A stretch of 64,000 nucleotides of DNA, taken from Escherichia phage UPEC03. A program made the position numbers and the translations under genes. Below, piece by piece: positions 1-62,760 of the stretch; position 1 is the stretch's first letter; each line of letters opens with the position of its first letter. The notes under the pieces are model-generated. The model made no database searches. It was given only the letters and a program-made list of their open reading frames with translations, and was not told where the DNA came from. The stretch is taken from sequence record MW250785; one strand, 5' to 3'.

Positions 1-46
1 CCAGTAAAGGCTGTGCTGCGGCTTTCAGTTCGTCAAAAGTATACAT
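1..46 (-). CDS. hypothetical protein, 5' end only (gene runs off window start; begins MYTFDELKAAAQPLL)
   Basis: ATG at 46..44 preceded by AGGAG-like SD and a copy of the repeated GAAACGAAAC leader; rest of gene outside window. Confidence 0.3.
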   Translation of the reverse strand, partial: MYTFDELKAAAQPLL

Positions 47-125
47 GGTAAAATCTCCTAAGTGTGTTTCGTTTCTATGGGATAACTATATCAAAGCTAT
101 CCCATGAAGTCTTTAGCAAAAAGTG
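47..125 (-). promoter_or_regulatory. partial copy of repeated early promoter/leader cassette (TATAGT -10-like, GAAACGAAAC leader, SD)
   Basis: Minus-strand leader ...CCCATAGAAACGAAACACACTTAGGAGA...ATG; shares 17-mer TAGCACTTTTTGCTAAA with the cassette at 46591-46607. Confidence 0.4.
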
Positions 126-132
126 CTATTTG

Positions 133-336
133 TTAAACCCGTTTCCCTTGATACCATTTCGGGAAAACAACCCGCTCGATAAAAGTTCTTCCCAGGTTGA
201 AACTATCACCGAACAGGAGAACACCGAACAGCGGATCGCGTTTGATGTCATTTTTCCCAACAGTTTTCATTTTCCCTTCATGGATCACGGTGTCGCCCAC
301 CGTGATATCCTTGATGCTTACTTTTACATGATGCAT
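133..336 (-). CDS. hypothetical small protein
   Basis: ORF in same orientation as neighbours; no recognisable domain. Confidence 0.3.
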   Translation of the reverse strand: MHHVKVSIKDITVGDTVIHEGKMKTVGKNDIKRDPLFGVLLFGDSFNLGRTFIERVVFPKWYQGKRV

Positions 337-485
337 ACGATCACCTCTGCGAGTTTAGCAGGTTTTGCTTCTGGTCTAACTTTCAACGCATCATTCAGAT
401 TCTTTTCAACCATAACTACTGCGTCGTTTTCGTTGAAACCGTTCTTAACCAGGACTTTAACTACTTTGGCTTCTAAGTTTTTCAT
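324..485 (-). CDS. hypothetical small protein (53 aa, internal start MKNLEAK...)
   Basis: ATG directly downstream of conserved leader ...ATCGAAACGAAACAGACAAAAGGAAC; SD AAGGA. Confidence 0.4.
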   Translation of the reverse strand: MKNLEAKVVKVLVKNGFNENDAVVMVEKNLNDALKVRPEAKPAKLAEVIVCIM

Positions 486-560
486 GATGCGTTCCTTTTG
501 TCTGTTTCGTTTCGATGTGTGTAATATACTGCATATCGAAATTTGGGTCAATACCCAAAT
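486..560 (-). promoter_or_regulatory. promoter-early stem-loop (PeSL)-like cassette: hairpin ATTTGGGT-ATTG-ACCCAAAT containing -35 TTGACC, 17-nt spacer, -10 TATATT, conserved leader
   Basis: Read on minus strand; near-identical leader recurs at 46644-46680, 56187-56240, 62171-62200. Confidence 0.5.
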
Positions 561-1045
561 CAAAGAAAATCGTATTTTTCTTTTAATTTTTCGTAATACG
601 TATCCCATGCGGTTTCGTCGTTGATGATCTCAGTACCGAACCGATAAGCACGTTTGCGCAGTTCGAAACGTTCACGAATGCGCTCAACATTGATTTTCAC
701 TGATTCCGGCGTTGGTTGCCAATCTGCGCACAAATGACGATGAAACAGGGAGTTTGACAGCGGACTAAGATCGAAATCTTCGTATGCACCGTCCATGTAT
801 TCTTTACCATTACGCGCGAGGTATTCAGCACGTAATGCAGCATGACGATCGCGAAGGTATCCCAGCTTATTGTAAAAGAAGGTTACGTGTCCGGTTCCCA
901 GCGTATACACAGCAGGGATTTTTGACAGGTTGATTTTTGCCTTACCGGATAAAACGGCGTTGGGAATGCGAGGGAGTTCGCGCAGTTCTGCAATCAGGTG
1001 TTCGTTCAGCAGAAGAGAAGGATCGATTGTGTTAATACGTGTCAT
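560..1045 (-). CDS. denV: endonuclease V (pyrimidine-dimer DNA glycosylase), DenV-like
   Basis: MTRIN...ELRELPRIP...TLGTGHVTFFYNKLGYLRDRH matches T4 DenV N-terminus and core; start chosen at internal ATG (1045) with GGAGG SD. Confidence 0.85.
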   Translation of the reverse strand: MTRINTIDPSLLLNEHLIAELRELPRIPNAVLSGKAKINLSKIPAVYTLGTGHVTFFYNKLGYLRDRHAALRAEYLARNGKEYMDGAYEDFDLSPLSNSLFHRHLCADWQPTPESVKINVERIRERFELRKRAYRFGTEIINDETAWDTYYEKLKEKYDFL

Positions 1046-1071
1046 AGTTGCCTCCGTTTGGTATGTGCGCA

Positions 1072-1105
1072 ATATACAAAAAAGCCCCTTGCAATGCAAG
1101 AGGCC
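1072..1105 (-). terminator. intrinsic terminator-like hairpin (CTTGC-AAT-GCAAG) followed by U-run on minus strand
   Basis: Stem-loop immediately downstream of ORF 1113..1421; approximate coordinates. Confidence 0.45.
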
Positions 1106-1112
1106 ATTAAAA

Positions 1113-1421
1113 TTATTTTGCCAGTGGTATAAGCATCTTTCGCATACCGCCGTTTTGTGTCGCATCATACACGCGTTTAGCTTCAATAAGGGAAAGTTCG
1201 ATATGGCATGATTTTCCTTTAACATCTATATCGAAAGTTACTATACCACTTGCTACGCTTACATGAGTAAAGATAAACTCACCCGCGAAATGTTTTTGAA
1301 ACGCTTTTTCGTGATCCAGGAACCATTCAAACGCTTCCCCGTGCTGGTACAGTCTGACGATAATCATTGAAACTATGACGAAAATCAGAACTGCTGCGAC
1401 GATCGTAAGCTCTTTCATCAC
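1113..1421 (-). CDS. hypothetical membrane protein (N-terminal TM helix)
   Basis: Hydrophobic segment IVAAVLIFVIVSMIIV; no recognised domain. Confidence 0.5.
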   Translation of the reverse strand: MMKELTIVAAVLIFVIVSMIIVRLYQHGEAFEWFLDHEKAFQKHFAGEFIFTHVSVASGIVTFDIDVKGKSCHIELSLIEAKRVYDATQNGGMRKMLIPLAK

Positions 1422-3432: not shown

Positions 3433-4760
3433 ACATAATCAACGGTGTAACGTGCGCGGGTTACGCCCACATAGATTAACTGCTTACACAGATCGTAATC
3501 TGCGAACGCATACGCATCGCGCGTGTACATATACGCATGGTCATACGTGCTCCCCTGTGATTTGTGATACGTGCAAACCGGAAGAGGCTTAACATCCTGG
3601 AACTTGTTTTTAATCGCCCAGAACGAATGCCACGGGGCTTTATAGCCTGTTTGCTGCTTGATGCGCTTATAAGTGCTCGCAACGTAGGCCAGATAGTTAC
3701 CCAGACGGTCTTTCATCACCGGATCAACAACAACCTGAATCTGTGCTTCGGTTTCCTCTTCGAGCGATACCGTTTTCAGAAGATAGAATTCAAGTTCGAT
3801 CTTCTCGTCGCACTTCTCCGCCTTGATAACTTCCCGACGCGGGATGATCTCTAAGACTCGGATTTTTTCGTTGTTGTTATAAACAATCTCGGTGAAGATC
3901 TGCCCGTTCAACCGCATTTCCTGAACTAACGGTTCCTGCATCACGATCACTTCATCGAGAATGAACGGTTCTGTTGTTTTGTACAGGTGTTTACGGATCG
4001 TTGCGTTCAGCTTGTCTACGTTGTCGTTAGTATACGCGAACATGCGGTTCTCGATCAAGTCATCCGGCGTTTTAACACGGCGGAAATACTGACGGAGGAA
4101 GTCAACAGCGTTAGCATGTTGGAACACACCCAGATCACCGACAGACATCGGTTTCAGCATCTTACCATCACGTACAGCCCGTGAAACCTGAATAATCGGG
4201 TTCCCTTCTGCCTGACGCATGATTTTATCCATACGGATAACATCAAAGATTTCTTCATCAAAGAACGGGGAGAGTTCAACACGTCCATCGGCGTTTACCG
4301 GACGGATCTGATCTTTATCACCCAGTCCCAGAATAACAGCGTTGCTTGGAATACTGCGCCGGATGATTCGGAACAGATCCATATCAACCATCGAGACTTC
4401 TTCAACAACGAACACGCGACAGGTAGACAGATCAGGCGCTTTCTTGCCTTTCTGCTGTTCGAACACACGCAGTTCTTCGTTAGTCACAGGGCTAATCTTC
4501 AATGCAGAATGAATCGTTGTTGCGTCCATTCCCGTAGCCGCTGCTAACACGTTTTTAGCCTGGTGTGTTGGGGCAGTTAACCAAATACCGCTAATCCCCA
4601 ACCCTTTCAGAGTGTTAAAGACAAACTTAACCAGTGTTGTTTTACCAACACCAGGGCCACCCGTAATAGTTGTATGAATGGCGTTCTGGATGTTGTGGAT
4701 CACGCGATCATGCGCGGACTTCTGATCGTCGCTCAGATCATCAAATGTTAACTCGCTCAT
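3429..4760 (-). CDS. dda: Dda DNA helicase (SF1B)
   Basis: 443 aa; Walker A GGPGVGKTT; strong similarity to T4 Dda along whole length (…YVGVTRARYTVDYV C-terminus). Confidence 0.9.
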   Translation of the reverse strand: MSELTFDDLSDDQKSAHDRVIHNIQNAIHTTITGGPGVGKTTLVKFVFNTLKGLGISGIWLTAPTHQAKNVLAAATGMDATTIHSALKISPVTNEELRVFEQQKGKKAPDLSTCRVFVVEEVSMVDMDLFRIIRRSIPSNAVILGLGDKDQIRPVNADGRVELSPFFDEEIFDVIRMDKIMRQAEGNPIIQVSRAVRDGKMLKPMSVGDLGVFQHANAVDFLRQYFRRVKTPDDLIENRMFAYTNDNVDKLNATIRKHLYKTTEPFILDEVIVMQEPLVQEMRLNGQIFTEIVYNNNEKIRVLEIIPRREVIKAEKCDEKIELEFYLLKTVSLEEETEAQIQVVVDPVMKDRLGNYLAYVASTYKRIKQQTGYKAPWHSFWAIKNKFQDVKPLPVCTYHKSQGSTYDHAYMYTRDAYAFADYDLCKQLIYVGVTRARYTVDYV

Positions 4761-9091: not shown

Positions 9092-9354
9092 TTCACTAAC
9101 CCCTCTTTAACGCCCTCTTTCATGGCTTTCAGAACACCGATAAAAGCGTCTTTGCCACCGATAGCGCCGATGATAAGCATCAGGACACCAACACAACCCG
9201 CTAAACCGATTCTGAACAGGTTCCAGGCAAACGGGATAGCCAGAAGCACTAACCACGGGAACGGAAAGCCCATAAGTGCGTTTAGAACCAGTAAGATAAA
9301 AGCGATTGCAAGTTTCATGATGTCCTCCTTTGTTTGTTTAGAATAAGGTATCAC
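9088..9354 (-). CDS. hypothetical membrane protein
   Basis: Multiple hydrophobic helices. Confidence 0.45.
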   Translation of the reverse strand: MIPYSKQTKEDIMKLAIAFILLVLNALMGFPFPWLVLLAIPFAWNLFRIGLAGCVGVLMLIIGAIGGKDAFIGVLKAMKEGVKEGLVK

Positions 9355-9389
9355 CTTTCGAGAAGGATTGCAATACCTACAGATACAAA

Positions 9390-9412
9390 AAAGCCCCTTT
9401 CGGGGCTTAATT
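9390..9412. terminator. GC hairpin AGCCCC-TTTC-GGGGCT with flanking A/T runs
   Basis: Seen in sequence. Confidence 0.5.
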
Positions 9413-9413
9413 T

Positions 9414-9668: not shown

Positions 9669-9747
9669 TTGGTATCTCCTAATCAGTTTTGTTGTCTACG
9701 GGAGTCATATTATCACAATCAGAACTCCCGTCAACCCCTAATCAGGA

Positions 9748-16029: not shown

Positions 16030-16065
16030 AATTTAGTCCTCACAAGTGGTGTACAACCAATATAA

Positions 16066-16094
16066 CAAAGCCCCTGCATTTCTGCAAGGGCTTT
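16066..16094 (-). terminator. GC hairpin after regA
   Basis: AAGCCCCTGCA-TTTC-TGCAAGGGCTT, T/A runs flanking. Confidence 0.5.
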
Positions 16095-16097
16095 TGA

Positions 16098-16466
16098 TTA
16101 ATGACCGATCCGGTACTTGTATTTCAAAGTCCATTCAGCTTTTTGTGCGTGAGTCAGTACGCGGAAGTTGTTCTCTTCGGAGAATTTCAGATCCGGCGTA
16201 AGGATGGAAACCATACCCCACTCTTCCAGAAGTCGCGCAATGTTATTGCGGCGCAGTTCGTCATCTTCGGTCATGTCAACCTGGCGACCGTCCAGCTTCA
16301 ACAGTTCTTTGAAGTGTACGATAAAATAACGCCCTTGTTTCTGTAGGATGTGGCAAGACTGCCACAACATTTTCTTTTTGTTATTTGCGATCCCGATGCG
16401 GGTCAGCGTTTCGCGAATTTTCAGGAAACTGTCATCGCTGGACAGTTTAATTTCGAGCATGTTCAT
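16098..16466 (-). CDS. regA: translational repressor RegA
   Basis: 122 aa (same as T4 RegA); position downstream of 62/44/45. Confidence 0.8.
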   Translation of the reverse strand: MNMLEIKLSSDDSFLKIRETLTRIGIANNKKKMLWQSCHILQKQGRYFIVHFKELLKLDGRQVDMTEDDELRRNNIARLLEEWGMVSILTPDLKFSEENNFRVLTHAQKAEWTLKYKYRIGH

Positions 16467-20107: not shown

Positions 20108-20773
20108 TTATTTCTCGTTTAAGTTAATTAAAGTTTGTTTCATTAAGTTTCGGTATTTTACGATTTCTTCGTTACTGATTTCAACTAATTTTCTGTATGC
20201 GTTTAGTTTTTTACTAAATTCATTCCAGACGAAATCCGTTGCGATTTCATCGTGTTTATTTATGATGTCTAAAAACGAGTCGAGGATCAAGAATGATTCA
20301 TAAGAAATCACCCCAGACTGTACGAGTTTGCTGATATACGAGGTTGATGATTTGACGCTATACTGAAACACCGTTGAGAGGGGAATACCTTTCATGCGGG
20401 AAAATTCATACAGGTTTTTTACATCGTCCACGAAAATATTATCAATTCGCCTCAACTTGCCTATGTATTGACGATAAAACACGATCGTATCTTCGTCTAC
20501 ATCCCCGACCCAGAAGTCGGGGTTAGCTACCATGTTGGAGAGAAGTATAAGATATATTTCTTTAAATGTAAACCTTTCGGCTAACTTTTTGAAAAAATAC
20601 TTATCTCTTCTCTTTTCGAACGCTTTTTCAGTGATCTTTATTTCCCATTTGTACTTGATCGCGTCATACTTCCCAGCAAAGTGATTTTTCATCACCAGAT
20701 ACAGTTTGTATACCGCGATCGGTTTCAAACGGGAATTAGCGTCTGAACTGTCAAACGGGGTTTTAAATTTCAC
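20108..20773 (-). CDS. 59: helicase loader gp59
   Basis: VYKLYLVMKNHFAGKYDAIKY...KRRDKYFFKKL closely parallels T4 gp59. Confidence 0.85.
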   Translation of the reverse strand: MKFKTPFDSSDANSRLKPIAVYKLYLVMKNHFAGKYDAIKYKWEIKITEKAFEKRRDKYFFKKLAERFTFKEIYLILLSNMVANPDFWVGDVDEDTIVFYRQYIGKLRRIDNIFVDDVKNLYEFSRMKGIPLSTVFQYSVKSSTSYISKLVQSGVISYESFLILDSFLDIINKHDEIATDFVWNEFSKKLNAYRKLVEISNEEIVKYRNLMKQTLINLNEK

Positions 20774-22231: not shown

Positions 22232-22308
22232 TTCAATACCTCGTTGTTGTTGAATGAAACTGATTATAGTGATCACTTTTTCAAAGTCAATAGATCATTT
22301 CAAAAATC

Positions 22309-22462
22309 TGAGCGAAGCGAAGGACACGAACGTAGTGAGTGTCTATGTACTGAATGTACGTTTTAATATTTTTATATTTTATATATAGAGAAAACAGTAC
22401 ATTTCCGTATACTTTTTAACCAGTTTTAACTATCCGTTTCGCTTCGCTCACGGAAGCGCTTC
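22309..22462. repeat. 13-bp inverted repeat TGAGCGAAGCGAA (22309-22321 / 22438-22450) flanking an AT-rich 115-bp core, plus adjacent 10-bp palindrome GAAGCGCTTC
   Basis: Seen in sequence in the divergent intergenic region between rnh (-) and gene 55 (+). Confidence 0.5.
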
Positions 22463-24668: not shown

Positions 24669-24942
24669 CCGTTATGATGAATATTTCGGGGCGAACCCCC
24701 GATATTCTCACCTGTTGCGTATGTTGGGAATGAAACACATCATTTCCACATCCAACGAAGCAGGGGAAACCAGCGCAGTTTGTTTGACCATCATGAAGGG
24801 TGCATGGCATTCATCACGAACATGGTCAATATTCATGCTTGATACACTGGACGACGATACTCTATCATATAGTATTGATTCATCAGTTGTTCAAATGATC
24901 ACTGAATTATGTGAACGGATTTTAAATGAAACTAAAAACTAA
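24661..24942 (+). CDS. hypothetical protein
   Basis: ORF between 47 and HNH gene, overlaps both. Confidence 0.35.
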   Translation: MHSRYDEYFGANPRYSHLLRMLGMKHIISTSNEAGETSAVCLTIMKGAWHSSRTWSIFMLDTLDDDTLSYSIDSSVVQMITELCERILNETKN

Positions 24943-25456
24943 ATCACATGGAGGTGGAAACCGAACAATTGATGATGAAATTTCTTCAATAAATGAACTA
25001 CTTCCTATGTTGGATGTTGATGTTGTATTAGGAAAGATATACTGGAAAAACTCACCTCGTAAGAGCGTCCCTGCTGGAACTGAAGCAGGGAGTAAGACAA
25101 AACATGGTTACGTTGCTATCGGGTATAAAAAGACGTATTATAGACGACATCGAATAATATTTTACGTCGCTAATGGTTATCTTCCTCTCGTAGTAGATCA
25201 CAAACACGGTGTTGAATCTGGTGATGGAATAGATAACCTGCAAGACATCACGCAACAACAAAACTCCGTTAAAATGAGAATGAGTAGAAGGAATTCTTCT
25301 GGGTTTAGAGGGGTTTCCTTTCACCAAAAATCAGGAAAATGGCAATCATGTATTGTGTATAATAGAAAAACAATATATCTTGGTTTGTATGAAACACCAG
25401 AACTTGCACATAGTGCATATACAGACAAGCGAAAAGAATTATTTGGTGAAATATGA
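24926..25456 (+). CDS. HNH homing endonuclease with AP2 domain (paralogue B)
   Basis: RRHRIIFYVANGYLPLVVDHKHGVESGDGIDNLQ + AP2-like SGFRGVSF...GLYETPELAHSAY; inserted between genes 47 and 46 with ATGA overlap to 46. Confidence 0.8.
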   Translation: MKLKTKSHGGGNRTIDDEISSINELLPMLDVDVVLGKIYWKNSPRKSVPAGTEAGSKTKHGYVAIGYKKTYYRRHRIIFYVANGYLPLVVDHKHGVESGDGIDNLQDITQQQNSVKMRMSRRNSSGFRGVSFHQKSGKWQSCIVYNRKTIYLGLYETPELAHSAYTDKRKELFGEI

Positions 25457-27144
25457 AATTAAATTTCCGTAAAATTAAGTATCAAAATATTCTGTCGGTC
25501 GGGAACACCCCGATCGAACTGGAATTTGATACGGCAAAGAAAACCCTGATCACGGGGAAAAACGGTGGCGGTAAATCGACACTGATCGAGGCGTTAACCT
25601 ATGCCCTGTTCGGTAAATCATTCCGCGATCTAAAAGTCGGGCAGTTGGTGAACAGCGTCAACAAAAAGAAATGCCTGGTTGAACTGGAAATCGAATACGG
25701 GAAAGACTCGTACAAAGTGGTGCGCGGACAAAAGCCGAAGGTGTTCGAGATCTGGAAGAACGGTGAGAAGTTGCCGGAAGACTCCGCAGCAGGTGATTAT
25801 CAGGCACAGCTTGAATCTATGCTGAACATCAACCTTGTGGGCTTCAAACAGGTTATCGTTCTGGGTACAGCGGGTTACACCCCATTCATGGAACTGAAAA
25901 CCCCAGAACGCCGGAAACTGGTTGAAGATTTGCTGTCTCTGTCCGTCATCAGTGAAATGGATAAGCTGAACAAGTCATACATTCGCGGTGTTAATCAGCA
26001 GTTGGATACGCTCTCAATGCAGGGTAATCACATCCAGCAGCAGATCGCAACACATCAGCGCTTCATTGACGAACAGCGAGCGAAAGCGAACCAGAACAAC
26101 GCCCGATACAAAGAGATCTATGATAGCCACGTAGAAACCGCAAAGAACATCAAAGCACAGCTTATGCAGTTGCAAGCGGAGATTGCGGAATCGGTGATCA
26201 CTGGAGAAGACCGGACGGAAGATATCAACAAACTCCGTGACGGTTATTCGCGGCTCTCAATGACTGTAGAACAGTTTAAAAAGCTGGAGGTGATGTATCA
26301 GAAAGGCGGTGAGTGTCCGGCCTGTAAGCAAGCGATTAAACCCACTCCTGAGCGTATGGCGGAGATCGCAGAGAACATCAAAGCGGGCACACAACGTTTA
26401 ACCCTGATCAAAACCAAACAGGACGAGTTACAAGGGATCATGAATGACTTGCTGCAACAGCAACGCGCACTCAATGCCCTGAAAACCAAATATGAAGCCC
26501 TGAAAGGTACTCTGCAAAACGAAGTTGCCAATGCTAAACGAGCACAGGCGATCATGGAACAGGCAAGCGCGGAAGTAGTCATTGATGAAGAACCCGTGAA
26601 GCAGTTGCAACAGCAGGAAGCAGAACTGAACGAAAAACGACAAGGCTACGTCAAGGAAAAATACATTCGTGGTATTGTTACTGATATGTTGAAAGATTCC
26701 GGCGTTAAGGCCAGCATTGTTAAGCGCTATATTCCGTACTTCAACAAACAGATAGCATATTATCTGGATCTGTTGGGTGCGGATTACCAGTTCACTTTAG
26801 ATGACGAGTTCAACGAATCGATCAAATCACTGGGGCGCGATGATTTCAGTTATGCGTCATTCAGTCAAGGCGAACGTGCTCGCATCAACTTGTCTATTCT
26901 GTTCACATGGCGTGACGTGACAAGTAAAGTATCAGGCGTGGATCTGTCTCTGCTGATTATGGACGAAGTTTTCGATAACGCTCTTGATAAAGAAGGTGCG
27001 TTTGCTGTAGGGGCTGTTCTGAATGGTATTGATGGTAATATCATGGTGATTAGCCACAACGATTTAGACCCTGGTGATTTCGATCGTCATATCGTCATGG
27101 CTAAATTGGGGCGCTTCTCGAAGATGGAAATCAAGAAGTCTTAA
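25453..27144 (+). CDS. 46: recombination endonuclease subunit gp46 (Rad50/SbcC-like ATPase)
   Basis: 563 aa; Walker A GKNGGGKST, coiled coil with CPAC zinc hook, C-terminal signature; co-linear with T4 gp46. Confidence 0.9.
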   Translation: MKLNFRKIKYQNILSVGNTPIELEFDTAKKTLITGKNGGGKSTLIEALTYALFGKSFRDLKVGQLVNSVNKKKCLVELEIEYGKDSYKVVRGQKPKVFEIWKNGEKLPEDSAAGDYQAQLESMLNINLVGFKQVIVLGTAGYTPFMELKTPERRKLVEDLLSLSVISEMDKLNKSYIRGVNQQLDTLSMQGNHIQQQIATHQRFIDEQRAKANQNNARYKEIYDSHVETAKNIKAQLMQLQAEIAESVITGEDRTEDINKLRDGYSRLSMTVEQFKKLEVMYQKGGECPACKQAIKPTPERMAEIAENIKAGTQRLTLIKTKQDELQGIMNDLLQQQRALNALKTKYEALKGTLQNEVANAKRAQAIMEQASAEVVIDEEPVKQLQQQEAELNEKRQGYVKEKYIRGIVTDMLKDSGVKASIVKRYIPYFNKQIAYYLDLLGADYQFTLDDEFNESIKSLGRDDFSYASFSQGERARINLSILFTWRDVTSKVSGVDLSLLIMDEVFDNALDKEGAFAVGAVLNGIDGNIMVISHNDLDPGDFDRHIVMAKLGRFSKMEIKKS

Positions 27145-27841
27145 ACTTGCAGTTGTCAAAATGCCATCGTTTCATATTGGTGGCATCACCAACTTTAGCG
27201 CAATGGGGGCAAGTTAATTGCTCCCTTTTCTTTTGTATTTTTCTGTCTGGGTTCTGGGTACAATATGGAATATGGCTGTTCAAGTAATGCACTGTCGATT
27301 CTGTACCACAATGAGGACAAGAACCGCGATCTGATACTACGTTGCTGTTTTTATGTGCTCGCATGACTCCTGCAAATGCATTCACTTTCCCTTCATTGCC
27401 TGGCTTGTGCTTGCAGTTGTCGAAGTGCCAGCGGTTCATATTACCTACTAAGCCGGACGTATTGCAATGAGGACACGTAACCCTGTTCTGTTGAAGTTTG
27501 GCCTGTCTCATGCGTAAGCGTGTCTCTTCGCTGAACTCTTTTTGTTTCTGGGCTTCAAGTGCTTTTTCTTTTAACCATCCATAGCGGCGGTTTGCTGTAC
27601 GCGCAGACGATCGAGAAGTGCCGACTGTAAGCATGTTAGCAGCATAAATTAGTTTATGGTTGCCTGGATACATCTTAACCAATAGCAGATGTGCTATGAA
27701 ATGTTGACGTGCTGACAGTTCAACCAGATTTTCGGGATCGTCCGATCCTCCCATACATTTTGGAACGATGTGATGTTTCTCTTTGTACTTTGCATCCGTT
27801 CCGGTAGTCATGAGTTGTTCGTAAATCTTATGATAATTCAT
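27131..27841 (-). CDS. HNH endonuclease with repeated CxxC zinc-finger modules
   Basis: HHIVPKCMGGSDDPENLVELSARQHFIAH HNH core; three CPHC...W(H)FDNCK repeats; 3' end overlaps 3' end of gene 46 convergently. Confidence 0.75.
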   Translation of the reverse strand: MNYHKIYEQLMTTGTDAKYKEKHHIVPKCMGGSDDPENLVELSARQHFIAHLLLVKMYPGNHKLIYAANMLTVGTSRSSARTANRRYGWLKEKALEAQKQKEFSEETRLRMRQAKLQQNRVTCPHCNTSGLVGNMNRWHFDNCKHKPGNEGKVNAFAGVMRAHKNSNVVSDRGSCPHCGTESTVHYLNSHIPYCTQNPDRKIQKKREQLTCPHCAKVGDATNMKRWHFDNCKFKTS

Positions 27842-29859: not shown

Positions 29860-29875
29860 CTGGTTATGCTATAAT
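29848..29875 (+). promoter_or_regulatory. sigma70-type promoter TTGAAA-16-TATAAT
   Basis: Seen in sequence immediately before the hairpin at 29876-29907. Confidence 0.55.
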
Positions 29876-29907
29876 GGGAACTGTTGAAAAGCAGTTCCCT
29901 TTTTTAT
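29876..29907 (+). terminator. hairpin GGGAACTG-TTGAAAA-GCAGTTCCC followed by TTTTTT
   Basis: Seen in sequence after J-domain gene. Confidence 0.6.
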
Positions 29908-29916
29908 GAGGTGAGT

Positions 29917-30144
29917 ATGATTATTCAGGTATCGGTTCAGGGTAACACTCTGACAGTAACCAATTCCATTATGACCGCTATGGCTGCATGTCGTGATTAT
30001 GTGATGTCAAACCCTCCGGTAACGGAAATTCTGGAAATTGATGTATGGGAAGACGGTGTGATCGAAGAATCCTTTGGGTTCACTCCGTTAGAAGAAGATT
30101 TACGCAAAATGGAACAATGGTTATGGCAAACTGTACCCCAATGA
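29917..30144 (+). CDS. hypothetical protein
   Basis: ORF with GAGGTGAG SD. Confidence 0.4.
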   Translation: MIIQVSVQGNTLTVTNSIMTAMAACRDYVMSNPPVTEILEIDVWEDGVIEESFGFTPLEEDLRKMEQWLWQTVPQ

Positions 30145-38813: not shown

Positions 38814-38873
38814 AAACAGTTGACAGTGAAGTGCGGGTGTGATAAGATACCCGCACAAACAAAGGAGAATATT

Positions 38874-40531: not shown

Positions 40532-40608
40532 GGCCCTTTAGCTTAATTGGTTAGAGCGGGTGACTCATAATCGCGCGGTTGCTGGTTCGAATCCAGCAGG
40601 GGCCACCA
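40532..40608 (+). tRNA. tRNA with CAU anticodon (Met, or Ile if lysidine-modified), encoded CCA
   Basis: Acceptor GGCCCTT/AGGGGCC, T-arm GCTGG-TTCGAAT-CCAGC, anticodon loop CTCATAA; hand-folded. Confidence 0.75.
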
Positions 40609-40613
40609 AATAC

Positions 40614-40689
40614 GCAGGTGTAGTTCAATTGGTAGAATATCTGGTTTCCATCCAGATTGTTGAGGGTTCGAGTCCCTTCACCTGCTCCA
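40614..40689 (+). tRNA. tRNA-Gly (UCC), encoded CCA
   Basis: Acceptor GCAGGTG/CACCTGC, anticodon arm TCTGG-TTTCCAT-CCAGA, T-loop TTCGAGT; hand-folded. Confidence 0.8.
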
Positions 40690-42518: not shown

Positions 42519-42526
42519 AATCCAGC

Positions 42527-42553
42527 CGTTGCCGAAAGGTAGCGGCTTTTTTC
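42527..42553 (+). terminator. hairpin CCGTTGCC-GAAA-GGTAGCGG + TTTTTT
   Basis: Seen in sequence. Confidence 0.55.
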
Positions 42554-42643
42554 GTTTTTATGCAAAATAATGCTTGCACTGAATCAGGCTTTCTTGTATC
42601 TTTAACCACGTAGGCAAGACAACTTAACTTTGAGGATGACATT

Positions 42644-43991: not shown

Positions 43992-44568
43992 CGGGATCGC
44001 CGTAAAATGGCAGTCGGGGTTGCCGTTCTTTTTGTCTAAACACAACATGCCGACCGATATCGCGCTGGATATGGTTACGGATGAAAAGTTCCGCGATATG
44101 ACCGAAATCTTCGGGTGTGATCACCAACTGGCGAAAATTCTCATGGAAGAATACAACAACAGTTCGTTTATTCGCTATCTAAGCGCGTATGACGATGCGT
44201 TAATTGTTATCAACCGTCTGAAAGCCAAATATGATTTTGTGGCTGTCACGGCGCTGGGAACCACTCCTACGGCAAGCCTTAACCGTATTGCAAACCTGAA
44301 CACGCTGTTCCCTTCTGCATTCAAAGAGGTTTGTGTTGTCGGTCACGGCGAAACGAAAGTACATCGTTACCTGGAAGCCAAAGCAAAATATGGCGATCGT
44401 TTAGTATGTTTCATTGATGACCTTGCAGTAAACTTGAATGAGTGTCATAACGTCATCAGTCAGTTGCCGTTATTCCATATGTTGCGTGGCGAACGTAGTG
44501 AACCGAGTGTACCTCATACTAAAGTGAATAACTGGCATGAAATTGAAAAAGCAATTGAGAACTCTTGA
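43963..44568 (+). CDS. HAD-superfamily hydrolase (possible deoxynucleotide 5'-monophosphatase)
   Basis: Motif I LTDIDGI, C-terminal FIDD. Confidence 0.45.
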   Translation: MKPVILTDIDGIAVKWQSGLPFFLSKHNMPTDIALDMVTDEKFRDMTEIFGCDHQLAKILMEEYNNSSFIRYLSAYDDALIVINRLKAKYDFVAVTALGTTPTASLNRIANLNTLFPSAFKEVCVVGHGETKVHRYLEAKAKYGDRLVCFIDDLAVNLNECHNVISQLPLFHMLRGERSEPSVPHTKVNNWHEIEKAIENS

Positions 44569-45088
44569 TGAAGAAACGCAAGGTATAGAAAACCTACTAC
44601 AATGTATTCGAGTAGAACCAGAAACCGGAAAATGTTTCTGGTTGGAAAAGAGAAGTAATAAAATTCCTGCTGGAAGTGAAGCAGGTTCTTTTCATAAATC
44701 AAGTGGATATACGCGAATAAAATTCGAAAATGCGATGTACATCCGGTCACGGGTGATATTTTATTACGTTAATGGTTATCTTCCAGTGATGGTTGACCAT
44801 GTTCACGGTGTTGAATGCGGTGATATGATTTCTAATCTAAGGGAGTCCAATCAGGTAACAAATCAACAAAACCGCACACGGAATAAAAATAATACCGTTG
44901 GGTTTAAGGGCGTGTCATTCAACAAGAAATCGCAAAAATATAGCGCCAAAATCACTTTACATGGAGTGACTAAGTGGTTAGGATTTTATGATTCTGCCGA
45001 GGAAGCAAGTGAAGCATATAAGGCCAAAGCACTCGTTTCCTTTACACATAATGAAAGGTACTTAAATGATCTTACAGATTCTAAATGA
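44537..45088 (+). CDS. HNH homing endonuclease with AP2 domain (paralogue C)
   Basis: RSRVIFYYVNGYLPVMVDHVHGVECGDMISNLR + AP2-like VGFKGVSF...GFYDSAEEASEAY; overlaps both flanking genes. Confidence 0.8.
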   Translation: MKLKKQLRTLDEETQGIENLLQCIRVEPETGKCFWLEKRSNKIPAGSEAGSFHKSSGYTRIKFENAMYIRSRVIFYYVNGYLPVMVDHVHGVECGDMISNLRESNQVTNQQNRTRNKNNTVGFKGVSFNKKSQKYSAKITLHGVTKWLGFYDSAEEASEAYKAKALVSFTHNERYLNDLTDSK

Positions 45089-46589: not shown

Positions 46590-46605
46590 ATAGCACTTTT
46601 TGCTA

Positions 46606-46680
46606 AAAAGCCCCTTGCATGAGTAAGGGGCTTTTGTTATATTACAAACATCGAAACGAAACAGACAAAAGGAACATCCC
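46606..46680 (+). promoter_or_regulatory. PeSL-like cassette: terminator hairpin containing -35 TTGCAT, 17-nt spacer, -10 TATATT, conserved leader ACAAACATCGAAACGAAACAGACAAAAGGAAC
   Basis: Seen in sequence; best-preserved copy. Confidence 0.55.
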
Positions 46681-46953
46681 ATGCAAATCACTAAAGAACT
46701 CGAAGGCAAAGTAATCGTTCTGGTAAATGAAGACCGTTTGGCACAACTGGGTAACGGTGGTGAAAAACTGCCAGCGGACGCACTCGAAAGCCTTTCTAAA
46801 ATGCGTGTGATGCGTGTTACTGACGGTTGGGTTACTTGTCTGCCTCTGAACGACGAAGACAAAGCCGTATACGATGCACAAGCGGATTCATGGGATATCG
46901 AAGTACCTCTGGTAAACATCGAAGTTGAAGAGTGCTACGAAATCGAAAAATAA
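46681..46953 (+). CDS. hypothetical acidic protein
   Basis: ORF directly after cassette. Confidence 0.45.
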   Translation: MQITKELEGKVIVLVNEDRLAQLGNGGEKLPADALESLSKMRVMRVTDGWVTCLPLNDEDKAVYDAQADSWDIEVPLVNIEVEECYEIEK

Positions 46954-47014
46954 TGCTTGCTTACTGGGTAATGTAGTGGTACATTACCCATATCGAAACG
47001 AAAGGAGAAACATC
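46930..47014 (+). promoter_or_regulatory. cassette variant: -35 TTGCTT, spacer containing perfect 10-bp inverted repeat GGGTAATGTA/TACATTACCC, -10 TACATT, leader ATATCGAAACGAAAGGAG
   Basis: Seen in sequence. Confidence 0.5.
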
Positions 47015-47194
47015 ATGAAAATTATGCACACTGCAAATCAACTTCAAAACGGCAACTACGCTATCCACGATGCTATCGGTGCGCTGGTTGGGGTTTATCT
47101 TCATGGTATCAAACTCCTTGAAGTAAGTGGGAATACCTTTTATGGTGTTGAAAACATCGAAGCAGCGATGGAAATTATCGGTGACCTGAAATGA
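47015..47194 (+). CDS. hypothetical small protein
   Basis: ORF from internal ATG with AAGGAG SD. Confidence 0.4.
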   Translation: MKIMHTANQLQNGNYAIHDAIGALVGVYLHGIKLLEVSGNTFYGVENIEAAMEIIGDLK

Positions 47195-55974: not shown

Positions 55975-56186
55975 GCTAATTCCTTCTCGATTGCTTCGAT
56001 GATGTGGAGAACGTAACCGTTCAGTTCTTTTGCTTTATCAGCGGCTTCAACCATACCGTAACGAGGAACTTCTAAAACGTTCGCACCTTCGAGCAGGTTG
56101 CTTTCGATGTCTACGATTACGTAGCTCTCACCGATTACTGCGCCTTTTCTCCAGTCTTTTACGAACTTCATCATTTTAGCTTTCAT
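55971..56186 (-). CDS. hypothetical small protein (start MKAKMMKF)
   Basis: ATG directly after conserved leader copy. Confidence 0.4.
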   Translation of the reverse strand: MKAKMMKFVKDWRKGAVIGESYVIVDIESNLLEGANVLEVPRYGMVEAADKAKELNGYVLHIIEAIEKELA

Positions 56187-56265
56187 GTTCTCGTTCCTTT
56201 TGGCTGTTCCGTTTCGATATGTGTAATATAACAAAGCCCTCACCGAGAGGCAAGGGCTTTTTTGA
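56187..56265 (-). promoter_or_regulatory. PeSL-like cassette (hairpin with -35 TTGCCT, -10 TATATT, leader ACACATATCGAAACGGAACAGCCAAAAGGAAC)
   Basis: Read on minus strand. Confidence 0.5.
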
Positions 56266-56266
56266 T

Positions 56267-56557
56267 TTAATGCATAAAAGATTTGACGTACTTCACGATT
56301 TCTTCACGACACATATCGACCGGAGTATCCTCTGCAATAGCAGCATGACAGAAGATTTCACCATCCAGCCAGAACGATAGCATGTACTGAATATCCCGAC
56401 CTTCGTTTTCTTTCTGGTGTTTCTTGATGCGATCAAATGCATCATCCATACTTTCGGTAGCTGTAAGCATTTCAGATTCACCCGCTACAGCAGCCATTTC
56501 CCCAGCTTCATCACTGAATTCGCTTTCCAGTTCTTCCCAGTATACTATCGTTATCAT
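56267..56557 (-). CDS. hypothetical highly acidic small protein
   Basis: 96 aa rich in E/D. Confidence 0.4.
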   Translation of the reverse strand: MITIVYWEELESEFSDEAGEMAAVAGESEMLTATESMDDAFDRIKKHQKENEGRDIQYMLSFWLDGEIFCHAAIAEDTPVDMCREEIVKYVKSFMH

Positions 56558-61891: not shown

Positions 61892-62170
61892 TCAGTGTCC
61901 GAACACACCACGAATAGACTCTGCGAACGCGTACAGTTCAGGGTTTTTCGCTTTCACTGTTTCGATTTGTTCCAGGATGTAATCTGGTTTGTATTTCGCA
62001 CCGAACCAGCAGTAAGAGAAAGAACGATCCCACATGAACACGTTGTAGTATTCACCGTTACGCACTTCAACCATCACGTAACCTGGATTAGAACCCAGCG
62101 GGTAATCTTTCAGTAGATTAAATTTCGCACCAGCGCCAGTACATCCGTTAAACAGGTCATTAAAAGTCAT
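61892..62170 (-). CDS. hypothetical small protein
   Basis: ATG after conserved leader copy. Confidence 0.4.
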   Translation of the reverse strand: MTFNDLFNGCTGAGAKFNLLKDYPLGSNPGYVMVEVRNGEYYNVFMWDRSFSYCWFGAKYKPDYILEQIETVKAKNPELYAFAESIRGVFGH

Positions 62171-62250
62171 GGTATGTTCCTTTTCAGTTTCGTTTCGGTA
62201 AAGCTAATGTATCACTATCCTGGTCAGTATGCAATGTTTAATTTTGCAAA
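62171..62250 (-). promoter_or_regulatory. cassette copy: -35 TTGCAT, 17-nt spacer, -10 TACATT, leader ...CCGAAACGAAACTGAAAAGGAAC
   Basis: Read on minus strand. Confidence 0.45.
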
Positions 62251-62760
62251 TTTACCAAAATGTTTTATCGCTTCCCGATCGTATGCTTTTGCAGCCTCGT
62301 ATTCGTCACGATAGGAACCGATATGTTTAACCTTGCCGTCAATCTTTATCTGTGCAATGTAACGTATTCCAGTAGGTTGATCACGTACACATACACCCTT
62401 GAATCGACTGGTTGCTACTCTTCGTTTAGTCCGGTTCTGACAGTTTCGGGATTGATCCGCTTCACGCAAGTTATCAATCCCGTCGCCAGCCTCAACACCA
62501 TTTTTATGATCAATCACATCAGGCAGTTTTCCGGTTGCAACGTAGTAGATGATTCGATGACGTAGATATCCTTTGCTTTTGAAATAAACGCGGGTATATC
62601 CTCCTTTAATCTTCGAACCTACTTCCTTTCCGATCAAGTCAGAACGTTTGTGTGACGTTCGTATAATTGTCCCCGTTTGTATATCAACAGAAACAGTTTT
62701 AAGGAATTCGTCAATTCCTTTCTGTTCTTCTTCGATTGTTCTTAGTCCGTTGTGTGACAT
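62224..62760 (-). CDS. HNH homing endonuclease with AP2 domain (paralogue D)
   Basis: RHRIIYYVATGKLPDVIDHKNGVEAGDGIDNLR + AP2-like SRFKGVCV...HIGSYRDEYEAAKAY; overlaps 3' end of C5-MTase gene. Confidence 0.8.
   Translation of the reverse strand: MSHNGLRTIEEEQKGIDEFLKTVSVDIQTGTIIRTSHKRSDLIGKEVGSKIKGGYTRVYFKSKGYLRHRIIYYVATGKLPDVIDHKNGVEAGDGIDNLREADQSRNCQNRTKRRVATSRFKGVCVRDQPTGIRYIAQIKIDGKVKHIGSYRDEYEAAKAYDREAIKHFGKFAKLNIAY

Follow-up and report, generated by a model that had tools for sequence, protein, structure and literature searches.

Background

The closest described relatives of the elements analysed here are the promoter-early stem-loops (PeSLs) of T4-type phages, which Arbiol et al. 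2010 (PMC2839356) defined at the sequence level as an upstream stop codon, a sigma-70 promoter, a variably placed stem-loop, an SD and an ATG, lying near small ORFs. In the phi1/RB49 system studied by those authors, whole PeSLs gave about 13,000 Miller units and the stem-loop terminated transcription like rrnB T1. PeSLs also occur in PST/T4 and nt-1/KVP40 (Comeau et al. 2014, PMC4122927); for RB43 the literature gives only "PeSL-like sequences ... data not shown". The class is further characterised by mini-circles that arise when flanking copies recombine. A 21-nt intergenic direct repeat, aaATAGCACnnnTTGnTAAAA, was reported in 2024 in phages TLS, T1, Rtp and Rogue1 and was listed there as an open question (PMC11447400). 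The initial transcribed sequence (ITS) of promoters has its own literature. Heyduk & Heyduk 2018 (PMC5961368), whose text cites Kammerer et al. 1986 for the concept of a functional initial transcribed or downstream region, reports that the ITS alters promoter output more than 10-fold. Slow ITSs there contain two or three T among their first 7 nt together with Y-G steps around +5 to +7; a high purine content and a GG or GA near +6 aid escape, and C-G steps can slow it at some positions. The promoter-escape literature has so far reported no conserved ITS motif, and no 13-nt consensus for initial transcribed regions is described in the searchable literature.

The window analysed here is a 64,000-nt stretch of Escherichia phage UPEC03 (MW250785), whose genome is of the RB16/RB43 type (Pseudotevenvirus). 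A first-pass annotation of these letters had proposed that a composite promoter, hairpin and leader element recurs at six or more loci and is a PeSL of the T4-type kind. The elements do fit the definition of Arbiol et al., an ordinary result which extends the described class to the RB16/RB43 group; their start-site module, however, reaches far beyond T4-type phages.

Six complete cassettes in the window

All six proposed loci carry the element, in the order hairpin, sigma-70 promoter (mostly with an extended -10), TCGAAACGAAAC, A/C-rich spacer, SD and ATG. Positions of +1 below are predicted.

Cassette 1 (reference copy): 46590..46683, + strand, upstream of a 90-aa ORF (46681-46953)
46590-46607, +: T1-type 21-nt repeat
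46606-46635, +: hairpin followed by a U-run; dG -21.1 kcal/mol, z -4.8
46615-46620, +: -35 box TTGCAT
46635-46643, +: TGT and -10 TATATT; discriminator ACAAAC
46650, +: predicted +1; start-site module ATCGAAACGAAAC at 46650-46662, then an A/C-rich spacer
46669-46673, +: SD AAGGA; ATG at 46681
Cassette 2: 46957..47017, + strand, upstream of a 59-aa ORF (47015-47194)
46957-46962, +: -35 box TTGCTT
46965-46990, +: hairpin embedding the -10, without a U-run; dG -15.6, z -4.0
46977-46985, +: TGG and -10 TACATT; predicted +1 at 46992
short leader of 23 nt, +: ATCGAAACGAAAG, SD GGAG, ATG at 47015
Cassette 3: 483..562, - strand, upstream of a 53-aa ORF (485 down to 324)
562-560, -: stop codon of the upstream gene, denV
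560-541, -: hairpin embedding the -35 box TTGACC at 551-546; dG -10.2, z -2.3
528-523, -: -10 TATATT, no TGn; predicted +1 at 516
leader, -: same as in cassette 1 as far as the SD; ATG 485-483
Cassette 4: 56184..56269, - strand, upstream of a 71-aa ORF (56186 down to 55971)
56269-56267, -: upstream stop codon
56260-56233, -: hairpin followed by a U-run, embedding the -35 box TTGCCT at 56253-56248; dG -19.2, z -5.1
56233-56225, -: TGT and -10 TATATT; predicted +1 at 56218
leader, -: ATCGAAACGGAAC, SD AAGGA, ATG 56186-56184
Cassette 5: 62168..62234, - strand, upstream of a 92-aa ORF (62170 down to 61892)
62234-62229, -: -35 box TTGCAT, within the 3' end of an HNH-AP2 endonuclease ORF (62224-62760)
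62214-62206, -: TGA and -10 TACATT; predicted +1 at 62199
leader, -: ACCGAAACGAAAC, SD AAGGA, ATG 62170-62168; no significant hairpin (z -1.7)
Cassette 6 (T1-type architecture): 44..135, - strand, upstream of an ORF running past the window end
135-133, -: upstream stop codon; 21-nt repeat at 129-112; no -35 box
104-78, -: hairpin embedding the -10; dG -13.4, z -3.7
93-85, -: TGA and -10 TATAGT; predicted +1 at 78
leader, -: ATAGAAACGAAAC, SD GGAG, ATG 46-44

A chance origin of these copies is ruled out by shuffling: TCGAAACGAAAC has six matches in the window at up to one mismatch against 0.93 +/- 0.87 expected, a count that none of 100 shuffles reached, and the 23-nt leader GAAACGAAACAGACAAAAGGAAC occurs three times against 0.00 expected. 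Three copies are near-identical across 40 nt. A profile built on 46 independent copies from other phages recovered precisely the six cassettes from the window, at E values of 1e-6 to 0.03, and found no seventh at E < 1, so "six or more" becomes exactly six. The window holds seven further promoter/hairpin cassettes without the start-site module, and there are about 11 module-bearing copies per genome. The downstream genes, which had been called unrelated, are indeed so: these ORFs of 53-92 aa show no similarity to one another and belong to five separate PHROGs, none with a known function, and their RB16 counterparts are all annotated "hypothetical protein", which agrees with the siting of PeSLs, in variable regions and ahead of small ORFs whose function is unknown.

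The proposed promoter, a -35 box and a -10 of TATATT or TACATT separated by 17 nt, holds for five of the six copies. Their -35 boxes read TTGCAT (twice), TTGCCT, TTGACC and, in addition to the variants first listed, TTGCTT, and lie 17 nt from TAnnnT hexamers that are TATATT in three cases and TACATT in two; the copy at 47-135 lacks a -35 box and has TATAGT. That copy had been taken for a partial one at 47-125 but is complete, with a T1-like architecture. An extended -10 (TGn) is present in five of the six. A stop codon lies upstream of every cassette (46587-89, 46951-53, 562-560, 56269-67, 62226-24 and 135-133), an SD (AAGGA, or GGAG in two copies) stands 6-8 nt ahead of every ATG at the 3' end, and leaders measure 23-32 nt.

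Hairpins are significant in five cassettes (dG -10 to -21 kcal/mol, z -2.3 to -5.1), the exception being the copy at 62171. As had been described, the hairpin embeds the -35 in three copies (46606, 56187 and 486), but in two others (46930 and 47-135) it embeds the -10. The stems covary between copies (GCCCC/GGGGC, GCCTC/GAGGC, ACCCC/GGGGT), that of cassette 4 covaries with its RB16/RB43 orthologue, and in Certrevirus cassettes the polarity of the stems is reversed. The hairpin-plus-U-run pattern of intrinsic (Rho-independent) terminators is found at 46606 and 56187, weakly at 486 (UUU), and is absent at 46930, 47-135 and 62171; over 20 kb the U-run hairpins of cassettes 1 and 4 rank highest among terminator-like sites, and that of cassette 1 is the best in 40-60 kb. 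Since the copy at 62171 lacks a hairpin and three hairpins lack a proper U-run, "terminator" is not a term that applies to every copy. A search of the window against Rfam 15 at the gathering score returned only two tRNAs and no family for the cassettes.

A start-site module tied to the -10

The conserved leader is in fact two parts, a promoter-tied start-site module and a translation leader. Among 77 distinct IMG/VR contexts of the motif, TAnnnT lies exactly 6 nt upstream in 52 and in only 0-4 at any other offset, whereas the distance from motif to start codon varies between 27 and 42 nt. Two features that the search had not specified accompany it in the independent copies, C at -1 (40 of 46) and TG at -15/-14 (about 70%). 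By analogy with annotated promoters, the predicted first transcribed base is the A of ATCGAAACGAAAC, 7 nt past the -10. The annotated +1 of T7 A1 is the A of ATCGAGAGGG, preceded by TTACAGCC, and the T7 A3 transcript begins ATGAAACGACAG; in phi80 the "O-L region" feature ends precisely at the motif, and in HK639 the "putative pL" feature stops 6 nt ahead of it.

The pL transcripts of phi80, HK225 and HK639 begin with the same module, and there nut/put leader RNA comes next, with no start codon after it. The first-pass annotation had suggested that the leader might be a translational-control site; for its 5' half this fails, because that half is fixed relative to the -10 and is present on non-coding pL leaders. 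A RegA-type operator would keep its position relative to the SD and AUG and occur on translated leaders only, and the 5' half does neither. The window leaders contain 62-77% A+C and one or two T in five of the six copies (seven in copy 47-135); folded along with the first codons, they have at most as much structure as shuffled sequences, and mostly less (z 0 to +1.7).

Between syntenic orthologues 3.8% of the sites in the start module differ, against 12.3% across the opening 60 nt of the ORFs (p = 1.7e-4), 25% in the hairpin region and 6.5% in the 3' half of the leader (AAAAGGAAC...ATG), which overlaps the ribosome-binding site. No other segment of the cassette is as conserved as the module, which exceeds the -10, the discriminator and the coding sequence in this respect. 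Homogenisation among copies, rather than site-by-site selection, might account for part of this conservation. In composition ATCGAAACGAAAC has a single T, purines at nine of its 13 positions, AA at +5 to +7, and C-G steps at +3/+4 and +8/+9. Near-identity over 13 nt is more than the general rules of escape, which are loose, can explain.

Distribution among phages

ATCGAAACGAAAC is found in T4-like, T1-like, rV5-like and lambdoid phages, the module-bearing lineages being Straboviridae (Pseudotevenvirus, Krischvirus), Drexlerviridae, Vequintavirinae, phi80, HK225 and HK639. Only about 21 nt are common to the phi80-type pL and the cassettes of lytic phages, both flanks being unrelated, and among phi80-type prophages with different operators (immunity) the upstream sequence differs while the module is kept. 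A bacterial scan gave 120 matches, mostly scattered chance ones, with loci in Vibrio and Clostridia among them; its interpretation covers the Enterobacterales prophage loci, over which Rfam had no match. Some apparent cross-family copies were discarded: the 49-kb IMG/VR contig L008 is a GC-rich chance match without a -10, and L007 and KKP_3664 are partial Pseudotevenvirus sequences rather than new families. The 89-kb contig L019 had no megablast match. A literature search for the motif string retrieved no phage paper, a weak result as figures are unsearchable.

By inspection alone, several known motifs were rejected. A sigma-54 promoter reading of ATAGCAC-N4-TTGCTA has AG in place of the invariant GG and a spacing 2 nt short; an IHF site does not fit; a MotA box would be wrongly spaced from the -10; AACGAA is missing the last T of the sigma-70-dependent pause element; the NAD-capping consensus is mismatched at -1 and +2 to +4; and Hfq A-R-N repeats would be in inconsistent frame.

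The T1-type repeat and exchange between genomes

Two cassettes carry an additional upstream element, ATAGCACTTTTTGCTAAA, at 46590-46607 (+) and 112-129 (-), and the other four lack it. It corresponds to the 21-nt repeat of T1-like phages, ATAGCACNNNNTGCTAAA having two copies in the window at 0 mismatches against 0.34 expected at up to two. In T1 itself the repeat lies 22 nt upstream of a -10 in 13 of 20 copies, which, in a cassette of the same kind, suggests that it is the upstream half of a promoter; in cassette 1 that spacing is lost because a GC hairpin with its own -35 is interposed. Many Drexlerviridae have cassettes that share 76-83% identity with cassette 6 (47-135), which is also 79% identical over 86 nt to an IMG/VR contig of T1 size and matches 528 phage records, many of them 44-52-kb Drexlerviridae. 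A binding protein that arrived together with the repeat was considered and rejected, as neither the window nor RB16 contains a relative of ST23, the annotated regulator of T1 (best E = 0.6).

The first-pass annotation had also cast the cassettes as recombination substrates, for which the evidence is only suggestive. Compared with RB16, Olmo and RB43, breakpoints fall inside four of the six cassettes. RB16 homology begins exactly at the -10 of cassette 3; RB16, Olmo and RB43 have an additional gene of about 660 nt directly upstream of the cassette 4 hairpin; the region upstream of cassette 5 is replaced in all three relatives, with a breakpoint at 62216-62219; and cassette 6 is an island of homology against RB16/RB43. 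When a junction is scored as broken if any of Olmo, RB16 or RB43 breaks it, four of six cassette junctions qualify against 33 of 91 (36%) ordinary ones, an enrichment that is not significant (OR 3.5, one-sided p = 0.15).

Function of the cassettes and alternative explanations

We consider it probable that each copy is a self-contained, PeSL-type early-gene expression cassette read by host sigma-70 RNA polymerase, which most likely serves as an insulated and very strong unit of early expression, with selection acting on its initial transcribed sequence. The hairpin over the -35 or -10 would form in RNA transcribed from upstream and terminate or attenuate incoming transcription, cassettes 1 and 4 having a true hairpin-plus-U-run terminator and cassette 3 a weak one. 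The strong, mostly extended -10 promoter, preceded in two copies by the 21-nt element typical of T1-like phage promoters, would then restart transcription. The purine-rich, nearly T-free ATCGAAACGAAAC would act as a promoter-proximal element that fixes the start and may aid rapid promoter escape, give a favourable 5' RNA end, or both, and the unstructured, A/C-rich and U-poor 5' UTR with AAGGA or GGAG would allow efficient translation of any small gene placed downstream. The cassette, being the sole sequence common to otherwise unrelated neighbours, may in addition serve as a homology patch for the exchange of gene modules.

A stronger proposal is possible, though we hold it only tentatively: that ATCGAAACGAAAC, with C at -1 and the fixed 6-nt distance to the -10, is a discrete, previously unrecognised promoter-proximal element which marks the immediate-early transcripts of unrelated phage lineages (T4-like, T1-like, rV5-like, lambdoid and partly T7-like), is read by host RNA polymerase or an Enterobacterales-wide host factor, and with the T1-type 21-nt repeat forms a promoter cassette exchanged between phage families. 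If true, this reading would also account for the T1 repeat.

We think it doubtful that the leader, together with the start module, does no more than form part of a working promoter and ribosome-binding site and owes its near-identity to common descent through within-genome copying, homogenisation by recombination and horizontal passage among co-infecting phages. Shared ancestry of whole cassettes is suggested by cross-family similarity that spans 40-120 nt and ends at the cassette edges, with downstream proteins that have no tblastn match, and by the three window copies that are so alike over 40 nt. The full leader variant AGACAAAAGGAAC, including non-essential positions, is common to T4-like phages, Certrevirus and Webervirus, and Klebsiella phage AYM matches an RB16 cassette for nine codons beyond its edge, into a truncated ORF that looks like a transfer scar. 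However, descent leaves the invariant distance to the -10 unaccounted for; it sits poorly with a module kept at phi80-type pL, where some 21 nt are shared between unrelated flanks, and with one that outlasts the -10, discriminator and coding sequence in orthologues diverged by 12-25% around it.

It is unlikely that the start module is a recognition site for a trans-acting factor, either host RNA polymerase or an Enterobacterales-wide RNA- or DNA-binding protein, that would confer a privileged fate on immediate-early transcripts (escape from shut-off, 5'-end protection, or ribosome or elongation-factor loading), the common use of one host component being the reason why unrelated phages keep the 13 nt. 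Identical 13 nt at the same 6-nt spacing in lineages with little in common except their hosts would be expected of such a site, as would its retention in phi80-type prophages of differing immunity, its rank as the most conserved segment of the cassette, and a precision beyond what generic escape rules need. Yet no candidate factor and no Rfam family was found, and by inspection the module is unlike IHF, sigma-54 and sigma-70 pause-element sites. Moreover, about half of the phage's other early-type cassettes do without it and T1 has only degenerate versions (ATCGACAACGA, ATCAAAACGA), so the module is not obligatory.

Finally, the leader is very improbable as a translational operator for a phage repressor (RegA, encoded at 16098-16466 of the window) or as a RegB-type nuclease cut that would shut off early proteins: regA is present in this phage group, the leader's 3' half overlaps the ribosome-binding site with 6.5% difference and two SDs contain GGAG, but four do not, RB16 has no annotated regB, the conserved 5' half is placed relative to the -10 and not the ATG, the module occurs in T1-like, rV5-like and lambdoid phages with no regA annotated in the records examined, its presence at the start of non-coding pL leaders contradicts the whole-leader version, and the leaders are A/C-rich. 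RegA sites are A/U-rich.

The division of the leader into a promoter-tied module and a translation leader turns the region first transcribed from very strong natural phage promoters into a concrete, testable object. The T1-like 21-nt repeat belongs to the same kind of cassette as the window copies. Virulent phages of different families that infect the same hosts have this regulatory cassette in common but none of its flanking genes, which is direct evidence for the movement of regulatory DNA, in addition to genes, from one phage family to another. Such cassettes are also compact natural parts for engineering, which pack a terminator, a promoter and a 5' UTR into about 90 nt.

Comparison with known systems

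The window cassettes share their start-site module with the founding PeSLs. C-ATCGAAACGAAAC occurs 6 nt after the -10 in phi1 PeSLs (L235: 14020, 14980, 20333 and 12028), those at 14020 and 14980 reading ...TATAGCATAATACACCC-ATCGAAACGAAACAC and that at 20333 TAATATACCCCC-ATCGAAACAAAGGAG; the module is also present in the PeSLs of RB49 and JSE, and RB49, phi1 and JSE have 7-8 similar places each. As in phi1/RB49, PST/T4 and nt-1/KVP40, the stem-loop position varies, there over the -35, over the -10 or between them, and, as in the accounts of Arbiol et al. and Comeau et al., homology breakpoints fall between the -10 and the SD. The published PeSLs differ in having near-perfect TTGACA/TATAAT promoters, as against TTGC(A/C/T)T with an extended -10 here, and polyG...polyC stems, as against polyC...polyG; RB49 carries them in dense sets, compared with the roughly 11 module copies per genome found here. 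Conservation of the initial transcribed sequence is no part of their published definition. Two of the window copies also differ in carrying the T1-type 21-nt repeat.

With the repeat of T1-like phages the window copies share the consensus aaATAGCACnnnTTGnTAAAA, an intergenic position, the orientation of the downstream gene and a similar distance to the ATG (83 and 91 nt, compared with about 76 in TLS), but here the repeat belongs to a T4-like myovirus and to only two of six cassettes; the TLS paper (PMC11447400) does not connect it with a fixed-distance -10, a start module or PeSLs. The pL promoters of phi80, HK225 and HK639 are alike in being sigma-70 promoters whose transcript begins with ATCGAAACGAAAC at an equal distance from the -10, with discriminator TTACTCC/TTATCCC. 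They differ in that they belong to temperate phages, that CI-repressor operators flank the promoter with no hairpin cassette, and that nut or put antitermination RNA follows the module in place of an SD and ATG. T7 A1 (TTACAGCC-ATCGAGAGGG) and A3 (ATGAAACGACAG) resemble the cassettes in a mapped +1 at A, although their identity to the module is only partial (ATCGA, GAAACGA).

Six copies of one cassette in the window

The motif TCGAAACGAAAC, allowing at most one mismatch, occurs six times in the window against 0.93 expected, a count reached in none of 100 shuffles, and the longer leader GAAACGAAACAGACAAAAGGAAC is present three times where 0.00 copies were expected. A search with a profile HMM derived from 46 independent copies in other phages found precisely these six, with no other match at E < 1. 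The repeated cassette proposed in the first-pass annotation is therefore real, with small corrections. All copies are intergenic and on the same strand as the downstream gene:

46606 (+), cassette 1
46930 (+), cassette 2
486 (-), cassette 3
56187 (-), cassette 4
62171 (-), cassette 5
47-135 (-), cassette 6

A -35 TTGnnn with a 17-nt spacer is present in five of the six, as is a TGn extended -10; the -10 hexamers are TATATT, TACATT or TATAGT, always 6 nt from the motif start, and leaders are 23-32 nt long. Five copies have a significant hairpin (dG -10 to -21 kcal/mol, z -2.3 to -5.1), and folding against shuffles gave no significant hairpin at 62171. The claim that the GC hairpin embeds the -35 box thus holds for 46606, 56187 and 486, but at 46930 and 47-135 the stem lies over the -10. 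A U-run follows the hairpin only at 46606 and 56187, and weakly at 486; 46606 and 56187 are the top terminator-like sites of the 40-60 kb stretch. The ORFs that follow the cassettes were assigned to five different PHROGs of unknown function, and no similarity was found among them, in agreement with the earlier statement that these genes are unrelated.

Around cassette 1, where small hypothetical ORFs lie between DNA ligase (gp30) and baseplate hub gene 27, identity is 98-99% with Enterobacter phage EcL22g and Klebsiella phage Olmo and about 98% with Escherichia phage RB16. The whole window aligns collinearly with RB16 ~10.2-74.2 kb (67-94% identity), and on this collinearity and identity the phage is a Pseudotevenvirus, an RB16/RB43-type "pseudo-T-even" myovirus of the Straboviridae. 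Two tRNA genes, 40532-40605 (+) and 40614-40686 (+), are Met and Gly by RB16/Olmo annotation; RB43 has one tRNA at this site, annotated Ile.

At least seven further intergenic regions are built alike (hairpin, TTGnnn-N17-TGnTAnnnT, A/C-rich leader, SD) but have other sequence 3' of the -10. Cassettes without the GAAACGAAAC module, on the strand of the downstream gene, include:

9319-9413
9669-9747
16030-16097, before regA
38814-38873
42519-42643
22232-22425

The regA cassette has a -35-embedding hairpin and TGTTATATT as in cassettes 1 and 4, with a leader unrelated to theirs. Since such regions differ 3' of the -10, the GAAACGAAAC leader marks one sub-family among the early-type promoters of this phage; RB16 has about 11 copies of this type genome-wide. 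An odd arrangement was seen at 29860-29930 (+), where a promoter with a perfect extended -10 (TGCTATAAT) leads within 10 nt directly into a terminator-like hairpin, GGGAACTG...CAGTTCCC plus T6, that directly adjoins the ATG downstream of it. At 29911-29916, Olmo and RB43 carry an insertion of ~330 nt.

The cassettes as PeSL elements

By the definition of Arbiol et al. (PMC2839356), a PeSL (promoter-early stem-loop) element comprises the upstream gene's stop codon, lying in an AT-rich tract, then sigma-70 -35/-10 boxes, a stem-loop that can take any of five registers, and the downstream gene's SD and ATG. As described there, PeSLs cluster in hyperplastic regions, whole elements show very strong promoter activity (~13,000 Miller units; most clones gained down-mutations), and the stem-loop terminates like rrnB T1 (PMC2839356). 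Comeau et al. widened the class to PST/T4 and nt-1/KVP40 (PMC4122927), and for RB43 the literature has only "PeSL-like sequences ... (data not shown)".

All sequence-level features of the definition are present in the window cassettes. A 164.7-kb IMG/VR contig with TTGACA-N17-AATAAT-ACACAT-ATCGAAACGAAAC is phage ECD7, a Krischvirus, and RB49, phi1 and JSE have 7-8 similar places each. PeSLs in phi1's own hyperplastic region twice read ...TATAGCATAATACACCC-ATCGAAACGAAACAC, like the module of the window cassettes, and others read ...TAATATACCCCC-ATCGAAACAAAGGAG and ...CACATAGAAACGAAAA. By this direct sequence link to ECD7, RB49, JSE and the phi1 PeSLs, the window cassettes are members of the PeSL class and have its start-site module in common, so the first-pass assignment stands. 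As PeSLs the six cassettes are ordinary, and the repeat family is real; the start-site module is not mentioned in published PeSL descriptions.

The conserved 5' half of the leader is tied to the promoter

It had been suggested that the leader could be a translational-control site. Scanning IMG/VR for ATCGAAACGAAACANAC gave 77 distinct contexts; TAnnnT lies precisely 6 nt 5' of the motif in 52 (other offsets 0-4 each), and the motif lies 27 to 42 nt from the start codon. This fixed distance to the -10 and variable distance to the ATG tie the conserved 5' half to the promoter, not to the ribosome-binding site. Traits not set by the search include C at -1 (40/46), the absence of G from -3 to -1 and, in about 70% of copies, TG at -15/-14.

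A scan of bacterial genomes gave mostly chance matches and one recurrent Enterobacterales locus, the immunity region of lambdoid prophages (CI-type S24 repressor, Cro/YdaS, YdaT, replication O and P), whose leader matches phages phi80, HK225 and HK639. In the phi80 record the "O-L region" feature stops exactly at the motif start, with gene N 410 nt further downstream; a promoter is annotated in HK225; and in HK639 "putative pL" is followed by the motif and, 68 nt on, by a "putL-like antiterminator RNA". Neither SD nor ATG follows the motif in these three phages, and the conserved 5' half therefore cannot be a translational operator. The 3' half (62-77% A+C, U-poor, ending AAGGA or GGAG) shows, together with the first codons, no excess of structure over shuffled controls (z 0 to +1.7), and by its sequence appears to be an ordinary good translation initiation region.

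We infer that +1 is the A of ATCGAAAC; the T7 record likewise places +1 at the A of ATCGAGAGGG (A1, after TTACAGCC) and of ATGAAACGACAG (A3). In phi80-type prophages with different operator sets, inter-immunity homology starts precisely at this predicted start, the module, and continues into a leader with a boxA-like TGCTT(C/T)TTTAACAA. The loci compared were:

3560-3760 (-), Citrobacter sp. FP75 prophage (L123)
401-470, phi80 (L227)

Constraint and mechanism

Constraint was measured as the fraction of differing sites per segment among syntenic orthologues.

Sites differing among syntenic orthologues
Start module (+1 to +13): 3.8%
-10: 6.2%
Rest of leader: 6.5%
Discriminator: 10.4%
First 60 nt of ORFs: 12.3%
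Hairpin/-35 region: 25.3%

The module differs less than the ORFs (p = 1.7e-4). The hairpin region varies with pairing maintained (GCCCC/GGGGC, GCCTC/GAGGC, ACCCC/GGGGT), and Certrevirus stems have the opposite G/C polarity; thus the hairpin is kept as structure and the start module as sequence.

The best-supported reading is that the cassette is an insulated early expression unit, in which the hairpin would halt or damp transcription from upstream, the strong extended -10 promoter would start it afresh, the module would set the predicted start and aid productive initiation, and the unstructured leader would allow efficient translation. A role in promoter escape is compatible with high-throughput ITS data: slow ITSs contain 2-3 T among their first 7 nt and have Y-G steps close to +5 to +7, escape is helped by purine richness and by GG/GA near +6, and the effect of the ITS on promoter output can exceed 10-fold (PMC5961368). 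The module has one T, 9/13 purines and AA at +5 to +7. It also contains C-G steps at +3/+4 and +8/+9, and since the escape rules are loose they do not explain 13-nt near-identity across unrelated phages. A host component that specifically recognises the module might account for it, as might inheritance of the cassette by transfer and homogenisation; the two are not mutually exclusive.

Spread beyond T4-like phages

The segment of cassette 1 from its -10 to the ATG matched 266 phage records at 1021 places. Outside the ~175-kb Straboviridae, matches include Klebsiella phage AYM (Webervirus, Drexlerviridae), E. coli phage LF82-12 (53 kb) and, in Certrevirus (Vequintavirinae), Enterobacter phage F4M1E and Cronobacter phage CR9, each with hairpin, -10, ATCGAAACGAAAC-A(G/A)AC(A/G)AAAGGAAC and ATG. 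Cross-family similarity is limited to the cassette, and the proteins downstream gave no tblastn match in T4-like genomes. In AYM (3972-4090) the match to an RB16 cassette runs on into a tiny truncated ORF (MKLKRESIKHQI...), whose first nine codons resemble the start of the RB16 gene after the cassette at 93234 (MKLVREAIK...); this looks like the scar left when a cassette and its gene passed between a T4-like and a T1-like phage. Cassette 47-135 gave matches in 528 records; 44-52-kb siphoviruses of Escherichia, Shigella, Klebsiella, Citrobacter and Salmonella account for many of these. The start-site module is thus common to T4-like, T1-like, rV5-like and lambdoid phages.

Conserved loci with a good -10, 6 nt and ATCGAAACGAAAC also occur outside Enterobacterales. 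Those in Vibrio chromosomes (L126, L130, L176, L190) continue ATCGAAGC..., like phi80 pL, and those in Clostridia MAGs (L107, L121, L122, L163, L183, L199) read TTGACA-N17-TATCAT-ATGTTT-ATCGAAACGAAACTTG; they may be prophage promoters, or else coincidence.

Homology breakpoints

Comparison by synteny with RB16, Olmo and RB43 placed homology breakpoints inside cassettes, as the PeSL model predicts. RB16 homology starts precisely at the -10 of cassette 486, where RB16 has another gene and another hairpin/-35 before an identical -10 and leader; denV (endonuclease V; 560-1225 (-)), which adjoins this cassette upstream, is in Olmo and RB43, not RB16. RB43 homology starts at the -10 of 46930. Upstream of 62171, all three relatives have other sequence in place of what in the window is an HNH-AP2 endonuclease; the breakpoint lies 5-8 nt 5' of the -10. 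At 56187 all three have an extra ~660-nt gene against the hairpin, and no second cassette was found beyond it. Homology at cassette 47-135 forms an island: in RB16 and RB43 another gene follows downstream, starting directly 3' of the start module, and in RB43 the upstream side differs as well.

When all junctions were tested uniformly, base by base, 4/6 leader-cassette junctions were broken in at least one relative against 33/91 ordinary junctions (OR 3.5, one-sided p = 0.15). For RB16 alone the counts were 4/6 and 14/91 (p = 0.01), but the three comparisons are not independent. The genome is mosaic throughout and many indels are homing-endonuclease insertions. ORFs of this type, present or absent among Olmo, RB16 and RB43, are:

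62224-62760 (-)
24926-25456 (+)
27131-27841 (-)
44537-45088 (+)

The proposal that the cassettes serve as recombination substrates is plausible from the position of the breakpoints; their enrichment at cassettes was not significant over the three relatives.

A T1 repeat upstream of cassettes 1 and 6

Cassettes 1 and 6 have an upstream element, ATAGCACTTTTTGCTAAA, at 46590-46607 (+) and 112-129 (-). The related ATAGCAC-N4-TG(C/T)TA occurs 20 times in phage T1 against 0.38 expected; in 13 of the 20 a -10 hexamer follows at precisely 22 nt, and often this hexamer is spanned by an inverted repeat and has ATCGA, ATCAA or ATAGAAAC after it. The same spacing is seen in 4/5 copies in AYM. This fixed spacing, with the repeat's place in a PeSL-like cassette, suggests that the repeat forms a promoter's upstream half. 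A phage protein co-travelling with the repeat is unlikely, because no relative of T1's annotated regulator was found in T4-like genomes. When TLS, a T1-like phage, was re-annotated in 2024, a direct repeat of 21 nt, aaATAGCACnnnTTGnTAAAA, was described, with 18 intergenic copies ~76 nt ahead of start codons; its function ("stoperator", enhancer site or UP element) is listed there as an open question (PMC11447400). The element upstream of cassettes 1 and 6 is this TLS repeat, here in a T4-like phage, which links PeSLs to the unexplained repeat of T1.
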